The notes beneath the pieces were generated by a model that was not told where the DNA came from, ran no database searches, and saw nothing but the letters and a program-made list of their open reading frames with translations. A DNA stretch of 6,223 nt from a virus (Duplodnaviria > Heunggongvirae > Uroviricota > Caudoviricetes), in IMG/VR virus record IMGVR_UViG_2529292908_000013, positions 1-6,223 of that record, one strand, 5' to 3'. The first letter of the stretch is position 1; every line of letters begins with the position of its first letter. The translations under genes and the position numbers were made by a program. This document shows, one piece after another, positions 1 through 6,223 of the stretch.

Positions 1-1101
1 TCAGGCTATATTTCTTGTTATGTTATGCAGCTCAGCTGTAAAAATCAGCTCTCCCTTAGCGAAGGGAGTGCTCCCTCCTGGTTGAGTCATAAAACTTTGT
101 GAGACAGTCGTCCAGCTGTTTGTGTCGCTTTGTACGCCATTCTCTGTAATCGTTGCGCCTTCATGGCTGCCATTTTTCACTTTCCAGGCCAGGCGGTTAT
201 TGGGGGCATCAGCACCGCGGTAAGTGACCGAGGCCATAACGGCCACAACATCACTGTTGCTGTTATCCACCGCACCAAACGTGGCCTGTGCTGCATTCAG
301 GGACGGCGAGAGCATCAGATATCCGGCCTCGCTGTCAGAGGTGTTCAGCCCCGTGACAATATCTTTATTCAGTGAGTTTTTGGCGCTTCCACCGGTAAAT
401 GCCGTTACCGGGCTGTATCTGACCTCAATGCTTCCGAGCAGGGCGGGTTCTGCACTATTATTTCTACCGTATGTCACTGTTCCACAGTACATATCACCCA
501 GCATTAACGTACCGGATGCACCCGATGAAAAAATATTGTCACCACTACCAATACTCACCTGAATTTTGTCAGTCCGGTCATCTGGTACATAAAACGATGT
601 ATTTCCAACTAATGAGCGGTTGCAGTACAGACTGGCTGAGACATAGCCGTTTTCGTTTCGCGTTGCGAAAATTTCATAGTAATAACTGGCTGCTTCATCA
701 GGATACGGGGTTGTAAATGAATAGCCATTAATCCTGATGTGGGATGGCGAAGATGAATATTTCTTTCCCGCACTTAATGTCAGACGAAATCCCAGCTGTA
801 CAGCTGAGGCTTTTAAGTCCGGAAGTGTGCTGTACAGTGTGACATATGAGGATGTCGTGAAAATCAGCCCCGTTCTTTCTACAGTATTTACGGCCTGAGT
901 GCCACGACAGACGGATGTTACAGAACCGGACATATCATTGATAAGCGTGACACCGTTTTCGTTCAGTGCTGAAATAATATTTGTTGAATAATAGTTCTCG
1001 CACAATCCCTCATTCGCCGGAATTTGTCGAAAACTTTCGAGTTTTATAATATTCAAGGTCTGCTTTCCTTTTGTGTCGGTTAATATATTTCTGAATACCA
1101 C
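1..1101 (-). CDS. Hypothetical protein (366 aa by the ORF track), function unknown; candidate accessory (moron) gene or second receptor-binding protein downstream of the tail-fibre assembly gene
   Basis: Uninterrupted 1101-nt ORF, co-directional with the tail operon, with TGA stop at 3..1. The start is uncertain: the ORF opens with GTG at 1101..1099, 11 nt after the tfa stop, with no obvious Shine-Dalgarno. An in-frame TTG at 1056..1054 is preceded by AAGGAAAG and is an alternative start; the first in-frame ATG is codon 57. The protein is Ser/Thr/Gly/Asn/Tyr-rich, with no N-terminal hydrophobic signal, no transmembrane-like stretch, no Walker A motif and 4 Cys. I do not recognise it as any named family. 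G+C hand-counted at 37-45% in three 120-nt samples, versus about 59-62% in the baseplate genes. Confidence 0.65.
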   Translation of the reverse strand: MVFRNILTDTKGKQTLNIIKLESFRQIPANEGLCENYYSTNIISALNENGVTLINDMSGSVTSVCRGTQAVNTVERTGLIFTTSSYVTLYSTLPDLKASAVQLGFRLTLSAGKKYSSSPSHIRINGYSFTTPYPDEAASYYYEIFATRNENGYVSASLYCNRSLVGNTSFYVPDDRTDKIQVSIGSGDNIFSSGASGTLMLGDMYCGTVTYGRNNSAEPALLGSIEVRYSPVTAFTGGSAKNSLNKDIVTGLNTSDSEAGYLMLSPSLNAAQATFGAVDNSNSDVVAVMASVTYRGADAPNNRLAWKVKNGSHEGATITENGVQSDTNSWTTVSQSFMTQPGGSTPFAKGELIFTAELHNITRNIA

Positions 1102-1112
1102 AAAAAGTTAGC

Positions 1113-1631
1113 TCATGGTTTTTGTGGCCATTGAATAAAATCAAAAGACTCCTTATCACTCACATGACTTAAATTCAGAGCCTTCACCTCTTTGATATAC
1201 GCCATCCACTGCATCAGGTGGGCCTTGTCGTCATCACTGATGGTGCCCAGCTCCAGCTCGGTTTTCCAGTCAGATGTGATGTCCTTTGCTTCAGTCAGCA
1301 GATGCTGGCGTTGTTTTTCTGCCAGTTGCGAATAATCAACAGGAACCGGCAGCACTTCGCCGTCTTTGTAATACCAACTGGCTTCAATGCCAAAACCTTC
1401 CGGCAGTTCATCAACTTCCACAATGGTGAAACCTGTCGGATAAAGACGGGACACGTCTTCCGCCATTGAATAAATCACGCCACTTTCAGGGTGAATGCAC
1501 AATTTGTATCTCTTCGTGAATTTGTCCATGGATTCATAAAAATCCTGTCCGTCTTCACTGCGGAAATACTGAATGCCTTCACCATAAGGCATCTCTTTCG
1601 GGTAATAACGCGTGACGTTTCTGAGTTCCAT
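1113..1631 (-). CDS. Phage tail fibre assembly protein (Tfa / Mu U / P2 G-like chaperone), about 172 aa
   Basis: ORF-track ORF 1113..1667; I place the start at ATG 1631..1629 (MELRNVTRYYPKE...) because a canonical AAGGAG (revcomp of 1638..1643) lies 6 nt upstream. The upstream ATG at 1667 would overlap the fibre gene by 22 nt and has no RBS. The C-terminus (...DDDKAHLMQWMAYIKEVKALNLSHVSDKESFDFIQWPQKP) has the acidic/Trp-Pro pattern I recall from lambda Tfa-type chaperones. Position immediately 3' of the fibre gene fits. Confidence 0.8.
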   Translation of the reverse strand: MELRNVTRYYPKEMPYGEGIQYFRSEDGQDFYESMDKFTKRYKLCIHPESGVIYSMAEDVSRLYPTGFTIVEVDELPEGFGIEASWYYKDGEVLPVPVDYSQLAEKQRQHLLTEAKDITSDWKTELELGTISDDDKAHLMQWMAYIKEVKALNLSHVSDKESFDFIQWPQKP

Positions 1632-1645
1632 TATTTTCTCCTTAA

Positions 1646-2449
1646 TTAGCCGGATACCGTGCGCCATCCGCCATTGATATAAATCTGAGTTTGTTTGTAA
1701 TACACGCCGCCGATGTTATCCGCAGAGCTCTTGCCAGTTTCCTGAACGTTAATACCTGACAAAATACAACCTGAAGGCGCGCGAAATACCCAGGAAATTT
1801 CGTTACCACCGGGATTGTGAAACACTTCGCTGGTATACCTGAAATCACGTACTGCACCAGAATCGGTGCTGCTGATAGTGATATCGCTACTGCCATCAAA
1901 CAGCACATTGTTAATCCTGCGGGCCGTCTGAAGCCGGGTTGCCGTTCCGGCGTTGCCGCTGATGTTGTTGATGGTGATATCCGAAGTCAGGGGCATGTTG
2001 TTGACCTTACGCGCTTTTGGCACACCGCTGATGTTATCCAGAAACAATTGTTTATTCGGGATGTCTGCGCCGTTACGGTCTTTTGCCAGTCTGGCGTTTG
2101 CGTTATCCATCGCAATCCTGACCGCTTTTGGTGTAGCCGCTTCTGTTTCTGATTCACTGTTAACAGCACTGTTAAGCCGCACTACGCCTTTTTGCGTCAG
2201 CGATGCATCCGGGACTTTCTGGCCAATAAACGAGGTCAGCGCCTCAACCAGCTGGTTTTGTTTTTCCGGGTCAGGGGTGACGCCAGCCTCTTTAAGGACG
2301 TTAATCACCTCCTGCTGCAAATCACGCGTTGCTGCCTGATGATTATTCATAAATTCAGCAGTAACGATGGTTCCCTCAATTCCCTGAGTCGGGTCACCAT
2401 CATGAAATAACTTATCCGGCGTATTCACCGGGGGCATTAAACTCTGCAT
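1646..2449 (-). CDS. Phage tail fibre protein (267 aa) with a P2 gpH-like conserved collar motif and C-terminus
   Basis: ATG at 2449..2447 preceded by AGGAG (revcomp of 2455..2459) with a 5-nt spacer; TAA stop at 1648..1646. Contains ...DASLTQKGVVRLNSAVNSESETEAATPKAVRIAMDNANARL..., matching the widespread tail-fibre motif I recall from P2 gpH (..SETLAATPKAV..). The C-terminus ...IYINGGWRTVSG resembles the P2 gpH end (..KYINGTWYNVAQV). The 3' half is lower in G+C (about 44% at 1681-1800). Confidence 0.85.
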   Translation of the reverse strand: MQSLMPPVNTPDKLFHDGDPTQGIEGTIVTAEFMNNHQAATRDLQQEVINVLKEAGVTPDPEKQNQLVEALTSFIGQKVPDASLTQKGVVRLNSAVNSESETEAATPKAVRIAMDNANARLAKDRNGADIPNKQLFLDNISGVPKARKVNNMPLTSDITINNISGNAGTATRLQTARRINNVLFDGSSDITISSTDSGAVRDFRYTSEVFHNPGGNEISWVFRAPSGCILSGINVQETGKSSADNIGGVYYKQTQIYINGGWRTVSG

Positions 2450-2495
2450 TATTTCTCCTGTAGTTATTACAAATAAACAACATCAGACCTTTTGT

Positions 2496-3452
2496 TTAAG
2501 GCTCTGTGATAACGGCAAAGTGCAGCCCATTATGGTTAACTACTAATGGGGTACTGCTGTTATTTGCTGTTTGTAAATGTATTTTGTTAATTGTCATCGG
2601 CTCCGTGGTCTGCCTTCCCGACTGCCACTGAACGGTATTAACTGTCAGTGGTTCAATAGTTCGCCGCTCCGACAATAGTTGCATTCTGTTAATCAGCAAT
2701 GGTTCCTGACTCAGGTTTCCCGCCTGAAGCTGCGTATTGTTGATTGTGAGCGGTTTACCTTTCAGTACAGGAATAACTGCAAAATGCATTCCGGCATTAT
2801 TTATCAGCAGAGGCGCATCAGCATGACATACTGACTGAAACTGAATTCTGTTAATTGTCAGTGGTGATACTGGCTCTGGCTGAGATGTGATTTCATAAGT
2901 GAAATAACAGTCTGTAAAAGCTGGTTTAAGGTCTTTAAACGTGTTTTCTAAAATGGATTCACCAAAGGCCGTCAGCGGTTCGCCGGTTGCCGATGCGCCC
3001 GTTCTGAACCGGTAGACAGGTGTTTTTGTCCCGATAACATTGACCTGCCACGCCCAGCGGATTTCTGGTATCAGCAGGCGGTCGCCGCAGCGGTTTATCC
3101 CCACCCGGAATGGTCGCGGCTCCGTAATGGTGATGGTGTAGCCCAGACTGGCGGCAAGGCTTTTGAAGTAAGGGATTGACAGCCCCCCCGTGGCAGCCAT
3201 TTTTACCAGAATGTTCTGACGCCGCTCCTGTTGTGTTGCCCCTTCACGAGGAATAACACCGTACACGCGCTCCCAGTCGGACAGCGTCATCGATGCCTGC
3301 AACGGGGTGATTTGTGTCAGAACGCGCGCCGCTGACGCCTTCACGACTTCCATGACGTCAGCCTCGGCTGTCAGTTCTGCGGAAATATATTTCCCGTTCA
3401 GGTCATAACTGACAGGTGGCAGCATGGCGCGAAATAAATCGACCATATTCAT
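2496..3452 (-). CDS. Baseplate/tail protein of the Mu gp48 / DUF2313 (YmfQ-like) type with an atypical C-terminal extension of seven tandem 17-aa repeats; about 318 aa
   Basis: ORF-track ORF 2496..3488. I place the start at ATG 3452..3450 (MNMVDLFRAMLPP...), 4 nt after the J-like gene's TGA and preceded by GAGGGG; the upstream part of the ORF lies inside the preceding gene. The N-terminal roughly 190 aa resemble gp48/YmfQ-type proteins as I recall them, and the position between the J-like gene and the fibre gene matches Mu/SfV/e14 order. The C-terminal roughly 125 aa are repeats of the form PL(T/L)INxxQ... (see repeat feature). Confidence 0.75.
   Translation of the reverse strand: MNMVDLFRAMLPPVSYDLNGKYISAELTAEADVMEVVKASAARVLTQITPLQASMTLSDWERVYGVIPREGATQQERRQNILVKMAATGGLSIPYFKSLAASLGYTITITEPRPFRVGINRCGDRLLIPEIRWAWQVNVIGTKTPVYRFRTGASATGEPLTAFGESILENTFKDLKPAFTDCYFTYEITSQPEPVSPLTINRIQFQSVCHADAPLLINNAGMHFAVIPVLKGKPLTINNTQLQAGNLSQEPLLINRMQLLSERRTIEPLTVNTVQWQSGRQTTEPMTINKIHLQTANNSSTPLVVNHNGLHFAVITEP
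2499..2879 (-). repeat. In-frame degenerate tandem coding repeats (7 units, 51-nt period, one 60-nt unit) at the 3' end of the gp48-like gene
   Basis: Protein-level repeats start at ORF residues 209, 226, 246, 263, 280, 297 and 314: PLTINRIQFQS.., PLLINNAGMHFAVIPV.., PLTINNTQLQAG.., PLLINRMQLLSE.., PLTVNTVQWQSG.., PMTINKIHLQTA.., PLVVNHNGLHFAVITEP. The corresponding plus-strand cores are a gTTaAttGtcAgtGG-like string recurring at roughly 51-nt spacing between about 2528 and 2850. Confidence 0.75.
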
Positions 3453-3456
3453 AAAA

Positions 3457-4536
3457 TCACCCCTCGCGCGGAAAAGGCTGAATATCAATATTTCCCGGGC
3501 GCAACCATTCCCACGTTGACGCGTTAATAATGGCTTTTACGTTGTCCGCTGGCGTAATGATTCGCCGGTCACTGACACCGGAAATTAATGAAATCTGGGT
3601 TTCCAGTTGTGAAATTATTAATTCCTGCCCCGGCTCCAGCCGGTTCATAAAATCCGTGATAACGTCAGTTATTTGCGGTTTTATCTGCTCAACGGTCAGG
3701 CCGCTGGTTTTTACCCGGACAACGAAATCAACGGCTTTTTTCGTCGGGGCCAGTACCATCGTGTCCTTCGCTGTGACCGGGCGGACTTCCTCAATATGTG
3801 CCAGCACGGCATTAATCAGTTCCTGCGAGGGAAGGTCATTGGCTGACGTAATGGCCACATCAACCGTTCCCAGCCCACGACGCAATGACTCCACATATGC
3901 CGAGGTAACGCCATCCACTTCCAGCGCCCAGCGTTTGTAATCATATTTGTTACCGCCAGCGGGCGGCCTGCGCAGAATATCCAGATAACGCGCCAGCAGG
4001 TCGGCGTCACTTTCCCTGTCCGTTCCGCCGGTCAGGGATTTAATCGTCACCGTGCTGTTGATGCCTTCCGGCGGACTGACCAGCGTTGCCGTCTGCGTTG
4101 TGGATGCGTTCGTATGTGCGCCCGTGGTGGTGCTTTTTGCCGTCACCTCCGCGCTGCCTTCATCACCGATGGTGCAGTCTGCGGTGGTGGCCACGCTGAC
4201 ACCTTCACCACGAATTTCCGCACCGGCTGGCAGCATCTTACCGGGTGTACCGGTAATCACTGCCGGGCCGGATGAGGCCGTTGCTTTTTTACGAAAAACA
4301 TTGCGCGCGCGGCAGTGCAGCTCCAGATATTCAGGGTCTGCCGTGTCAGGAAACACCTGACGGAGTATCCACCCCTGATGCATATAAAGCCCGTCAGCCA
4401 CGCCAGATACGGCATTTGCACGAATGCGGTAATCGCTGTCAGCGCCGGTGTCGATGGTTTCTCCCGGCAGGGCGTTAGCGATATCACGTAGCTGGCGTTC
4501 TGTGTTTTCAGCAACGCCCGGAACTGGAAACGGCAT
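3457..4536 (-). CDS. Baseplate J-like protein (Mu gp47 / P2 gpJ family), 359 aa
   Basis: ATG at 4536..4534 overlaps the upstream gene's TAA by 1 nt (TAATG), with GAGGA about 9 nt upstream. Length and the C-terminal half (...YDYKRWALEVDGVTSAYVESLRRGLGTVDVAITSAN...) fit baseplate J-type wedge proteins as I recall them. Gene order fits. Confidence 0.85.
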   Translation of the reverse strand: MPFPVPGVAENTERQLRDIANALPGETIDTGADSDYRIRANAVSGVADGLYMHQGWILRQVFPDTADPEYLELHCRARNVFRKKATASSGPAVITGTPGKMLPAGAEIRGEGVSVATTADCTIGDEGSAEVTAKSTTTGAHTNASTTQTATLVSPPEGINSTVTIKSLTGGTDRESDADLLARYLDILRRPPAGGNKYDYKRWALEVDGVTSAYVESLRRGLGTVDVAITSANDLPSQELINAVLAHIEEVRPVTAKDTMVLAPTKKAVDFVVRVKTSGLTVEQIKPQITDVITDFMNRLEPGQELIISQLETQISLISGVSDRRIITPADNVKAIINASTWEWLRPGNIDIQPFPREG

Positions 4537-4886
4537 TACATAATCCTCACAGGGTGTTCAAACGTCTGCGGTGTGCCCGCGTTATCCGTGACGGTGATTA
4601 ACAGCAACAACCAGCCGCGCTGGCCCGCTTTCGTGTCAACGGTAATGGATTTTGCCCGCCCGTCATCAAGCAGGGGCTGAAGCGCCTGACTGGCATACTG
4701 CGCCGCCAGCCTGTGAACACGGGAAACGTCTTTTTCCCGCTTCAGTTCGTGCAGGCGTGACCCCAGCGACGCATCCGCCCAGTAACTGCCAAGCGGCGTC
4801 GCCAGTCGCAGATAAACCGCGTTATGAAGTGTATAAATCCGGCGGCGTTCGTAGTCGCCGGTTGCAGGTGAAATCGTCTGGTCCAT
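4536..4886 (-). CDS. Small baseplate protein, Mu gp46-like (P2 gpW / T4 gp25-type position), 116 aa
   Basis: ATG at 4886..4884 and TAA at 4538..4536, translationally coupled to the J-like gene. Size and position between the spike (V-like) and J-like genes are as in Mu-type baseplate modules. The sequence identification itself is weak; the call rests mainly on synteny. Confidence 0.7.
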   Translation of the reverse strand: MDQTISPATGDYERRRIYTLHNAVYLRLATPLGSYWADASLGSRLHELKREKDVSRVHRLAAQYASQALQPLLDDGRAKSITVDTKAGQRGWLLLLITVTDNAGTPQTFEHPVRIM

Positions 4887-4939
4887 GCCGCCAGTCTGGC
4901 AGCATGGACAGGTCAGAATCAGGTGAGGGTGTTCAGCAC

Positions 4940-5593
4940 TTAATTAACCGGCGTGTCAGACATGCCGTGTGGGGTCGGGTGTTTGTGCGTTCCGATTTTA
5001 ATGCCATTAATGGTGACGTCAACGGAGGTAATCACACCACCCACATGGTTGATGTTGCCTTCAAAGGTGGCGGCATATTTCTTGCCCCCACTGATGGCCA
5101 TGCCACCACTGCCGGTGATTTTACCTTCCACTGTCAGCTTATCGCTGGCCGTCAGTAACGGTGTCGTGAATGCGGCGTTCTCCTCTGCCTCAACCTCATA
5201 GCGTTTGCATTTCACCCGGTAAACGTCACATTCGGTTTCAACAATCCGCCCGCGCTTCAGTACGATTTTCGCGCCTTCATCGGTATACAGGGCCACCTCG
5301 CCGGGTTTCAGTTCCGTCAGGCGATATGCGCCGTGCTCTGTGGCCACGATGACGGTATGGGAGGTATTACCGTTCAGCGGAACGGCAATACCCATAGAGC
5401 CGGGCGGCGGGGATGTGGTGAGGCCGTAATGCTGAAAATACTCCGCACCGTCCAGCTGCTCGCCTGCCAGCCCGTTCAGCTGGAGAAGCTGTACTTTGGT
5501 CGAACTGTCCACCGTACCGGTCACCACCCTGAATGCCTGGCGAACGGTGGCCAGTGCCTGCTGTATGCGCTGATTAACCTTGTCCCACATCAT
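4940..5593 (-). CDS. Baseplate spike / assembly protein V-like (Mu gp45 / P2 gpV family), 216-217 aa
   Basis: Tandem ATG ATG at 5593..5588; GGGAGAA lies 2 nt before the first ATG and 5 nt before the second, so 5590 may be the true start. TAA stop at 4942..4940. N-terminal OB-like region followed by a Gly-rich C-terminus ending ...INGIKIGTHKHPTPHGMSDTPVN, which resembles the P2 gpV C-terminal apex (..HTHKHPGDSGGTTG..) as I recall it. Confidence 0.85.
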   Translation of the reverse strand: MMWDKVNQRIQQALATVRQAFRVVTGTVDSSTKVQLLQLNGLAGEQLDGAEYFQHYGLTTSPPPGSMGIAVPLNGNTSHTVIVATEHGAYRLTELKPGEVALYTDEGAKIVLKRGRIVETECDVYRVKCKRYEVEAEENAAFTTPLLTASDKLTVEGKITGSGGMAISGGKKYAATFEGNINHVGGVITSVDVTINGIKIGTHKHPTPHGMSDTPVN

Positions 5594-5991
5594 TTCTCCC
5601 AGACCTTAACAATGGCGACCTCTTTTTCTTTTTGCCCCTGCGGTGATGGCGTTTCTTCTCACGCGGGAAGGCGTCAGGTATCCACACGCCGTCCTCCTTA
5701 AAGCGAAGCCGGGTTGTCTGCCCGTTCCGGCCTCCGCTGAACTCACGCCCCATCAGGAAAAAGATGGCATCAATGCCGTGGAGTTCGCTGACAATCCGCA
5801 CACGCTGGCCGGGCTGCCACAGGACACCGTCCGCCGTGCGATGGCCTGCAACCAGTGCAACGATATCCAGCCCCGACAGACGGGCATCACTCATCATTTT
5901 TTTTGCGCGCCAGTTCACCTGCTCCATGTTACTGGTGTCGCCCTGGGTGATTATCTGCGGGCGGTAATAATCCACGGTGGGGTCGGTGGCC
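5574..5991 (-). pseudogene. 3' fragment of a baseplate hub gene (Mu gp44/P, P2 gpD-like 'late control D' family), interrupted at its 5' side by IS186
   Basis: The reading frame is open from the IS186 junction (5991) to a stop at 5576..5574 and overlaps the V-like gene start by 20 nt. The ORF track begins it at GTG 5975, but the frame stays open upstream into the IS inverted repeat until a TAG at 6002..6000. This is about 138 codons where hub proteins of this family are about 380 aa as I recall. The gene immediately upstream of the spike gene in Mu-type modules is the hub. Confidence 0.6.
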
Positions 5992-6014
5992 CATAAGCGC
6001 TAACTTAAGGGTTG
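5992..6014 (+). repeat. IS186 terminal inverted repeat (IRL), 23 bp
   Basis: CATAAGCGCTAACTTAAGGGTTG lies directly at the point where the phage hub-gene frame is broken. The exact outermost base (5991 versus 5992) cannot be fixed without the other end of the element. Confidence 0.8.
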
Positions 6015-6046
6015 TGGTATTACGCCTGATATGATTTAACGTGCCG

Positions 6047-6223
6047 ATGAATTACTCTCACGATAACTGGTCAGCAATTCTGGCCCATATTGGTAAGCCC
6101 GAAGAACTGGATACTTCGGCACGTAATGCCGGGGCTCTAACCCGCCGCCGCGAAATTCGTGATGCTGCAACTCTGCTACGTCTGGGGCTGGCTTACGGCC
6201 CCGGGGGGATTGTCATTACGTGA
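6047..6223 (+). CDS. insL: IS186 transposase InsL, N-terminal portion; reading frame terminates at 6221..6223, apparently through a +1 frameshift
   Basis: ATG at 6047 (the ORF track starts at an upstream in-frame GTG at 6041). The translation matches the InsL N-terminus through ...LAYGPGG, then reads IVIT-stop. The canonical protein as I recall it continues MSLREVTAW..., which is what GTCATTACGTGA would encode in the -1 frame. This implies one extra T at about 6210/6211. Confidence 0.8.
   Translation: MNYSHDNWSAILAHIGKPEELDTSARNAGALTRRREIRDAATLLRLGLAYGPGGIVIT

Follow-up and report, generated by a model that had tools for sequence, protein, structure and literature searches.

Receptor-binding proteins mounted on an adaptor are known from branched-fibre phages (G7C gp63.1/gp66, the CBA120 tailspikes, K1-5) and from the lactococcal BppU/BppA/BppL baseplate, in which BppA is an accessory carbohydrate-binding protein. 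In these systems the binder is a separate polypeptide, encoded beside a tail-anchored adaptor and carried by it, and it supplies an extra specificity. In Mu gp49/gp50 (S/U) and lambda Stf/Tfa, the fibre C terminus and the gene downstream form an exchangeable host-range unit, and the tail-fibre end of prophages also carries morons, as in P2 Z/fun, lambda lom/bor and the lambdoid effector loci. The gene considered here occupies this slot, with the same logic as the fibre units, in a 6,223-nucleotide (nt) stretch of a tailed phage (Caudoviricetes; IMG/VR record IMGVR_UViG_2529292908_000013, positions 1 to 6,223), referred to below as the window. It is a 366-codon minus-strand open reading frame (ORF) from GTG at 1101 to TGA at 3-1 and is called the target gene. 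An earlier note on this DNA had offered two readings of it, accessory cargo (a moron) or a novel receptor-binding or distal tail protein. The data now point to the second, in that the target and a repeat-bearing tail protein probably make up a host-recognition module of two parts that has not been described before, rather than foreign cargo.

The logic of such a module is known, both from two-piece or adaptor-mounted receptor-binding proteins and from the exchangeable fibre cassette; both of its parts are undescribed, and the putative binder has no curated family. Neither the family nor the repeat arm is described in the literature searched. In the adaptor systems named above, the docked binders are trimeric beta-helix spikes or tripods, attached via gp10-like or other globular domains, whereas the present locus combines an arm of 17- to 18-amino-acid (aa) tandem repeats with a small protein of two beta-sandwiches, and no sequence relationship to those systems was found.

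Fold and family of the target protein

The AlphaFold2 model of the target, computed with the family alignment, was confident (predicted local distance difference test [pLDDT] score, 88.5; predicted template modelling [TM] score, 0.86) and consists of two beta-sandwich domains with the jelly-roll topology of the concanavalin-A-like lectin/glucanase fold. Of the checks that the earlier note had proposed, the profile searches gave no sequence match in Pfam (E up to 0.1), in NCBIfam or in a sequence-profile search of the PDB. The fold assignment comes from structure: Foldseek against the PDB returned legume lectins, a tandem CBM51 and the receptor-binding domain of botulinum toxins. Members of the concanavalin-A-like superfamily (PL7, PL14 and PL36 lyases, CBM22, legume lectins) are 6-15 % identical to the target, which carries no family signature.

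Against predicted viral structures, the best Foldseek matches were full-length (TM 0.60-0.65, E about 1e-13) and were to proteins of ~350 aa from tailed phages, mostly uncharacterised. The best full-length match with a named function was a 352-aa 'virion structural protein' of Achromobacter phage AchV4 (E 1.2e-13, TM 0.65). It was deduced to be AchV4_0026 because this is the sole coding sequence with that length and product name. AchV4_0026 follows the putative tail-fibre gene AchV4_0024 and the paralogue AchV4_0025, and these AchV4 proteins and their kin resemble the target in size, in structure over the full length and in being encoded directly after a short tail-fibre gene. They differ in that the AchV4 fibre protein, judged from its translation, has no 17-aa repeat arm. 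Several of the phages encoding such ~350-aa proteins are classed as Casjensviridae. Both AchV4_0025 and AchV4_0026 were detected in virions by liquid chromatography-tandem mass spectrometry (PMC7996906). By analogy with AchV4_0026, the target may likewise be a virion component.

The description of the gene as an orphan did not hold. The earlier note could assign it to no family, which agrees with the Pfam, NCBIfam and PADLOC results, but a full-length match was obtained to PHROG 8291 (E 6.3e-239; ORF residues 16-363 against profile positions 1-348 of 349), which has no assigned function. When clustered at 90 % identity, the family yields 27 groups that span 40-97 % identity and come almost entirely from E. 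coli. Its distribution is narrow, with 17 representatives at 50 % identity among 1.84 billion proteins and members in 63 of 5426 complete E. coli genomes. Members were found in E. coli, E. albertii and Raoultella, in prophages of the Mu-like, P2-like and lambda-like types, and also on unassigned metagenomic contigs. Some carrier genomes bear strain names of the enterotoxigenic E. coli (ETEC) type (ETEC6, E2528-C1, TD225-C4), and some E. coli genomes have up to five matching places, which suggests that several prophages per strain carry a family member.

Within the family, conservation is highest over residues 1-15 at the N terminus (0.72 bits, the lowest column entropy), and the last ~60 residues vary most, with the lowest identity in nearly all homologues. 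The alignment also contains invariant Lys, Arg, Gln and Tyr residues, and the family is mosaic. A conserved N terminus, a variable C terminus and mosaicism make up a diversity pattern that is typical of host-range proteins. It would correspond to the conserved attachment end and the variable receptor-binding end of adaptor-mounted receptor-binding proteins.

Pairing of the target family with a repeat module

Fifty-seven loci were collected, cited here by L numbers, and the neighbourhoods of the family genes were compared. A repeat module on a tail protein co-occurs with a family member in all of the approximately 15 distinct layouts, and in 14 of them the ORF directly 5' of the family gene terminates in tandem 17- to 18-aa repeats, so that, as in adaptor-mounted systems, the family gene is encoded in the tail module next to its presumed anchor. 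These layouts cover three Mu-like lineages, P2-like and lambdoid prophages, Raoultella, E. albertii and metagenomic contigs. In most prophages other than that of the window, the family gene is part of the tail operon itself, flanked by the genes for the wedge protein and the fibre.

The repeat module was found grafted onto three unrelated tail platforms. The carrier is Mu gp48/YmfQ in four myovirus lineages, P2 gpI in L049 (300 aa, against what we take to be ~176 aa for the P2 reference protein) and the N-terminal domain of lambda Stf (PF08400; Stf-N) in lambdoid, P2-like and Raoultella prophages. In some layouts it is a free-standing protein of 64-90 aa. One lambdoid subtype (L004, 7794-7988; L056, 4802-4999) has the repeats as a separate homologous protein of 64-65 aa, situated between the target homologue and an Stf-N protein with a small C-terminal domain of its own.

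In four layouts the stop of the repeat ORF and the start of the target gene are 1 nt apart, with a GAGGT site within the last codons of the repeat ORF. This arrangement is one of translational coupling. A programmed frameshift or read-through that would fuse the adaptor and the target was considered and rejected, as the stops, the Shine-Dalgarno spacers and the separate starts are conserved. In two loci the target gene looks damaged: that of L032 (7001-8051) is split into two ORFs, and in L011 (around 7980-8010) the usual N terminus of the target (NIQLEGY...) can be read only in another frame. The adaptor of L011 has no terminal GLxFAV-type unit.

Two comparisons within lineages bear on whether the parts belong together. 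Within one Mu-like lineage, L002 has gp48 with the arm followed by the target gene, and its Stf-N stub is without repeats, whereas L009 has a plain gp48, and there the target gene follows an Stf-N protein with repeats. The repeats and the target gene thus move together. The second comparison concerns the sister prophages L041 and L043, which are 86-94 % identical in DNA to the window across gp44-gp48. Both have an ordinary gp48 of 190 aa and neither has the target gene. The window differs from them by a 441-bp insertion at 2452-2892, which creates the gp48 arm, and, as a second and separate difference, by the target gene after tfa. Arm and target are jointly present or jointly absent at two separate sites in these aligned sequences, which shows that they belong together.

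The survey of related prophages suggested in the earlier note also identified what else occupies the position after tfa. In L043 (9006-11479) it holds a 626-aa Stf-type second fibre (phage_tail_N plus Phage_fiber_2) and a DUF4376 protein, and in L041 it holds the start of an Stf-N ORF. The position in this lineage was therefore deduced to be one for a second host-range determinant and not a cargo slot.

The repeat arm

The extension of gp48 in the window is its last 130 residues, with the consensus E-P-L-V-I-N-R-A-Q-L-Q-S-A/G-x-x-T-x and a variant last unit, TPLVVNHNGLHFAVITEP. Arrays of the E. coli group share this consensus in 3-7 copies, and their last unit is usually of the P-L-V-V-N-x-x-G-L-x-F-A-V-x-T type. 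Near the distant homologues the units have diverged, for example to SVPVKAINGTTINAGNVL and VPVKNIYGSVICDGDT, with the period kept and with ends of the type ...VTEV or ...SSEV. Each unit of 17-18 residues probably forms a beta-hairpin. Tandem Repeats Finder detected nothing in the window, where the repeats are visible only at the protein level, and no Pfam model covers the arm.

Used alone as a protein query, the 130-aa extension gave one partial match. Of the listed homologues of gp48, the closest of which share 90-94 % identity with it, almost all are ~190 aa long and have no arm. The DNA of the extension was present in exactly the 7 E. coli records with this arrangement. In RefSeq the gp48 of the window (2496-3488) is entered, despite its intact ORF, as a YmfQ pseudogene that is incomplete and 'missing C-terminus', and repeat-bearing Stf-N proteins are likewise flagged as pseudogenes (L047). 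These carriers are flagged as truncated YmfQ or tail-fibre pseudogenes because the repeats replace the expected C terminus and fall outside the family model.

The number of units differs between near-identical prophages with the same target, 4 against 5 (L030 against L029; adaptor ORFs of L029, L030 and L031, 5788-6978), and L011 (6939-7979) has three identical 17-aa units. The copy-number differences and the identical units imply that the array expands and contracts on short time scales. As a speculation, the variation in number behind the same target suggests that docking takes place at the terminal unit and that the internal units provide spacing.

The gp48 protein of Mu lies outermost in the wedge, with one copy in each, and bears the fibre-docking loop (PMC11915804); there are six copies per baseplate. 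A C-terminal arm on gp48 would thus project from the periphery of the baseplate. In gp48 homologues of Limnobaculum (P0084, P0086, P0088 and P0106; 462-468 aa), a globular C-terminal domain of ~270 aa stands in place of the repeats, which suggests that gp48 is a general platform for extra host-range domains. The possibility that this domain is a fused target was rejected (hhalign probability, 0.1 %).

Proposed function

We favour the interpretation, at a probability of roughly 60 %, that the target is carried on the virion, docked on the repeat arm, as a host-range protein that binds glycans, and is the receptor-binding subunit of a two-part accessory module. The first part would be the string of 17- to 18-residue repeats fused to the C terminus of the peripheral wedge protein gp48, which we infer to be the docking arm, and the second part a protein of ~350 aa with the lectin/glucanase fold, made at a low level from a TTG start. 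The target would dock non-covalently on the arm, probably via its highly conserved N-terminal segment, and once docked would bind, and possibly cleave, a cell-surface polysaccharide. The virion would thereby gain a further specificity in addition to that of the fibre/Tfa pair. The conservation of the TTG start is in keeping with a structural component of low copy number. The receptor-binding or distal tail protein of the earlier note thus gains from the lectin-like fold, the AchV4 virion match and the pairing with repeats, and stays short of proof.

Several observations weigh against this interpretation. Sequence homology between the target and AchV4_0026 is undetectable (hhalign probability, 0.25 %), and the similarity to AchV4_0025 is marginal (22 %, with a shared YYYE...LYxN...FxSGxxGT motif). 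AlphaFold modelled full-length gp48 poorly (mean pLDDT, 47.8; extension, 25-39). Near-identical targets (97-98 %) follow repeat modules that are only 48 % identical to those of the window, so that specific co-adaptation is not evident, and in the window itself the arm and the target gene are not adjacent, the fibre and tfa genes lying between them. Finally, neither the target nor the repeat modules were found in any of 50,697 deposited phage genomes (megablast, tblastn), and we know of no cultured phage with a repeat-plus-target module.

A wider proposal is that the repeat string, with its conserved hydrophobic-(S/T)-x-E tail, might be a portable docking module that can be grafted onto unrelated tail platforms and that recruits a lectin-like receptor-binding protein, possibly in several copies per arm. 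This is offered tentatively and is more doubtful than the host-range function itself.

Alternative explanations

The fold would also suit a virion-borne polysaccharide-degrading enzyme, a beta-jelly-roll lyase or glycanase carried on the repeat arm and clearing O-antigen or capsule. This was judged unlikely. The similarity to the polysaccharide lyases PL7, PL14 and PL36 is one of fold, and the family has the invariant residues noted above; there is no sequence match to any lyase or hydrolase family, the PL7 signature motifs are unrecognisable, and lectins and non-catalytic binding modules score about equally in fold matching.

Less probable again is that the target is a Tfa-like assembly factor or chaperone for the repeat-bearing tail protein, absent from the virion or kept loosely on it. 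The gene consistently follows the repeat module, where a fibre chaperone would classically be encoded, it shows the translational coupling to the repeat ORF described above, and in lambdoid layouts it stands where the Stf C terminus plus Tfa would otherwise be. Fibre-assembly proteins reportedly also bind host cell surfaces (North and Davidson, 2021, reference 65 of PMC11915804). Compared with the known fibre/chaperone pairs, however, the target contains no Caudo_TAP (PF02413) or other chaperone domain at Pfam E values up to 0.1, it is about twice the size of Tfa, and its two-domain lectin-like fold and variable C terminus resemble those of a binding protein. Its upstream partner ends in short repeats rather than in a fibre tip domain, and a short repeat arm alone presents no obvious receptor-binding domain to assemble.

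That the target is a moron, in the sense of a lysogenic-conversion, superinfection-exclusion or anti-phage gene at the prophage end, is very unlikely: in this phage it is indeed the last gene before the right end, after tfa and close to a truncated rhsC, its G+C lies below that of the baseplate genes and it has no assigned function, but that terminal position is peculiar to the window among layouts in which the gene is normally embedded among the tail genes, whether it is present goes with a structural change in gp48 and is not independent of the structural genes, its composition equals that of the gp48 extension and of tfa, a consensus scan of L001, which is a weak method, showed no site resembling a promoter or terminator between the tfa stop and the target start, no signal peptide, membrane segment or hydrophobic segment was detected (maximum 19-aa hydropathy, 0.76), and the PADLOC-DB 2.0 scan at E up to 1 returned no defence family, in keeping with the remark in the earlier note that no defence motif is visible.

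Host-range determinants of temperate phages are still poorly catalogued, and RefSeq calls the target a 'hypothetical protein'. Recognising the pair as one module would correct the RefSeq annotations of the target and its partner, add a new receptor-binding protein family, demonstrate that extending a wedge protein of the baseplate can equip it with another specificity, and offer a small separate binder with a short docking sequence that could be transferred to retarget phages or tailocins. If the repeats were in fact a portable docking module, they would represent a previously unrecognised plug-and-socket system by which temperate phages of enterobacteria exchange host range, and might serve as a scaffold in phage engineering.

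Start site and composition of the target gene

The real start of the target is very probably the TTG at 1056, which gives a protein of 351 aa and places the gene 56 nt after the tfa stop. Several lines of evidence agree. All homologues begin MNI... at the TTG position, and the 15-codon extension is missing from every homologue in the family alignment. The PHROG 8291 profile aligns from residue 16 of the 366-aa ORF, and RefSeq annotates the TTG start in identical copies of the target. The DNA shared with copies in other phage backgrounds begins at window position 1072, 16 nt 5' of the TTG, so that the extension lies outside the profile and mostly outside the shared DNA. The TTG start is kept in 10 of the 12 layouts inspected, and equivalent AAAGGAGA or GAGG sites are found 5' of the start in other layouts.

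The earlier note had described a non-ATG start without a clear ribosome-binding site at an 11-nt gap from tfa. The GTG-led ORF exists and for it the gap is exact, but the downstream TTG with its Shine-Dalgarno sequence AAAGGAAAG is the more plausible start. The note was also correct that the gene is co-directional with the tail operon, both being on the minus strand with the Mu-type tail genes. Its G+C counts were exact (45.0, 42.5 and 36.7 %), but a low G+C is not specific to this gene: the target has 46.5 %, tfa 45.6 %, the fibre gene 49.6 % and the gp48 extension 44.3 %, whereas the baseplate core has 53-58 %. Low G+C thus characterises the distal host-range region as a whole, and the target does not stand apart from its neighbours in composition.

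Layout of the window

From the ORF list, Pfam and PHROG, the window was assigned to the distal portion of a Mu-type contractile-tail operon on the minus strand, and the Pfam matches give the order gp44'-gp45-gp46-gp47-gp48-fibre-Tfa, after which comes the target (Table 1).

Table 1. Features of the window (positions in nt)
Feature	Position	Strand	Evidence and remarks
Target gene, 351 aa	1..1056	-	Probable TTG start 1056-1054, TGA stop 3-1; ORF, PHROG 8291, RefSeq start
Shine-Dalgarno sequence AAAGGAAAG	1063..1071	-	6 nt 5' of TTG start; read from sequence
Upstream in-frame extension, 15 codons from GTG at 1101	1057..1101	-	Probably untranslated
Tfa	1113..1667	-	Pfam Caudo_TAP, E 5.5e-19; PHROG 136; RefSeq start = 1631
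Main tail fibre, 267 aa	1646..2449	-	Pfam Phage_fiber_2, E 5.8e-19; PHROG 1833
gp48 C-terminal extension, seven ~17-aa repeats	2499..2888	-	Repeat positions and consensus
gp48/YmfQ baseplate wedge core	2889..3488	-	Pfam Phage_Mu_Gp48, E 6.3e-30; likely start ATG at 3452
gp47/J	3457-4536	-	Pfam
gp46	4536-4886	-	Pfam
gp45 spike	4940-5593	-	Pfam
gp44, C-terminal 133 aa	5574-5975	-	Pfam
IS4-family element (IS421/IS186 type)	~5972-6223, junction near 5972-5991		Interrupts gp44

Of the 403-aa baseplate hub protein gp44, ~133 C-terminal aa are left in the window. The prophage copy in the window is probably defective because the IS4-family element cuts off gp44; intact copies of the prophage are present in other genomes, for example those of E. 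coli strains 48956 and JNE21-009. Rfam gave no match within the window, and neither a com/mom nor an invertase region exists in this type of phage.

Where complete E. coli genomes contain the same prophage, the target is the last prophage gene and is followed by ~108 bp and then a truncated rhsC. The 108 bp 3' of the target stop (L001, 10102-10209) contain three GTCCAGAA motifs and end at the truncated rhsC. This segment and the truncated gene have the appearance of the right-hand end of a Mu-like, transposable prophage that has inserted into rhsC. The same Mu-like tail region was also found on plasmids of ~249 kb (L003, NZ_OZ547097.1 plasmid 2; also NZ_OZ547049.1), where it adjoins the conjugative-plasmid leading-region genes ssb, parB-like, psiB and psiA.

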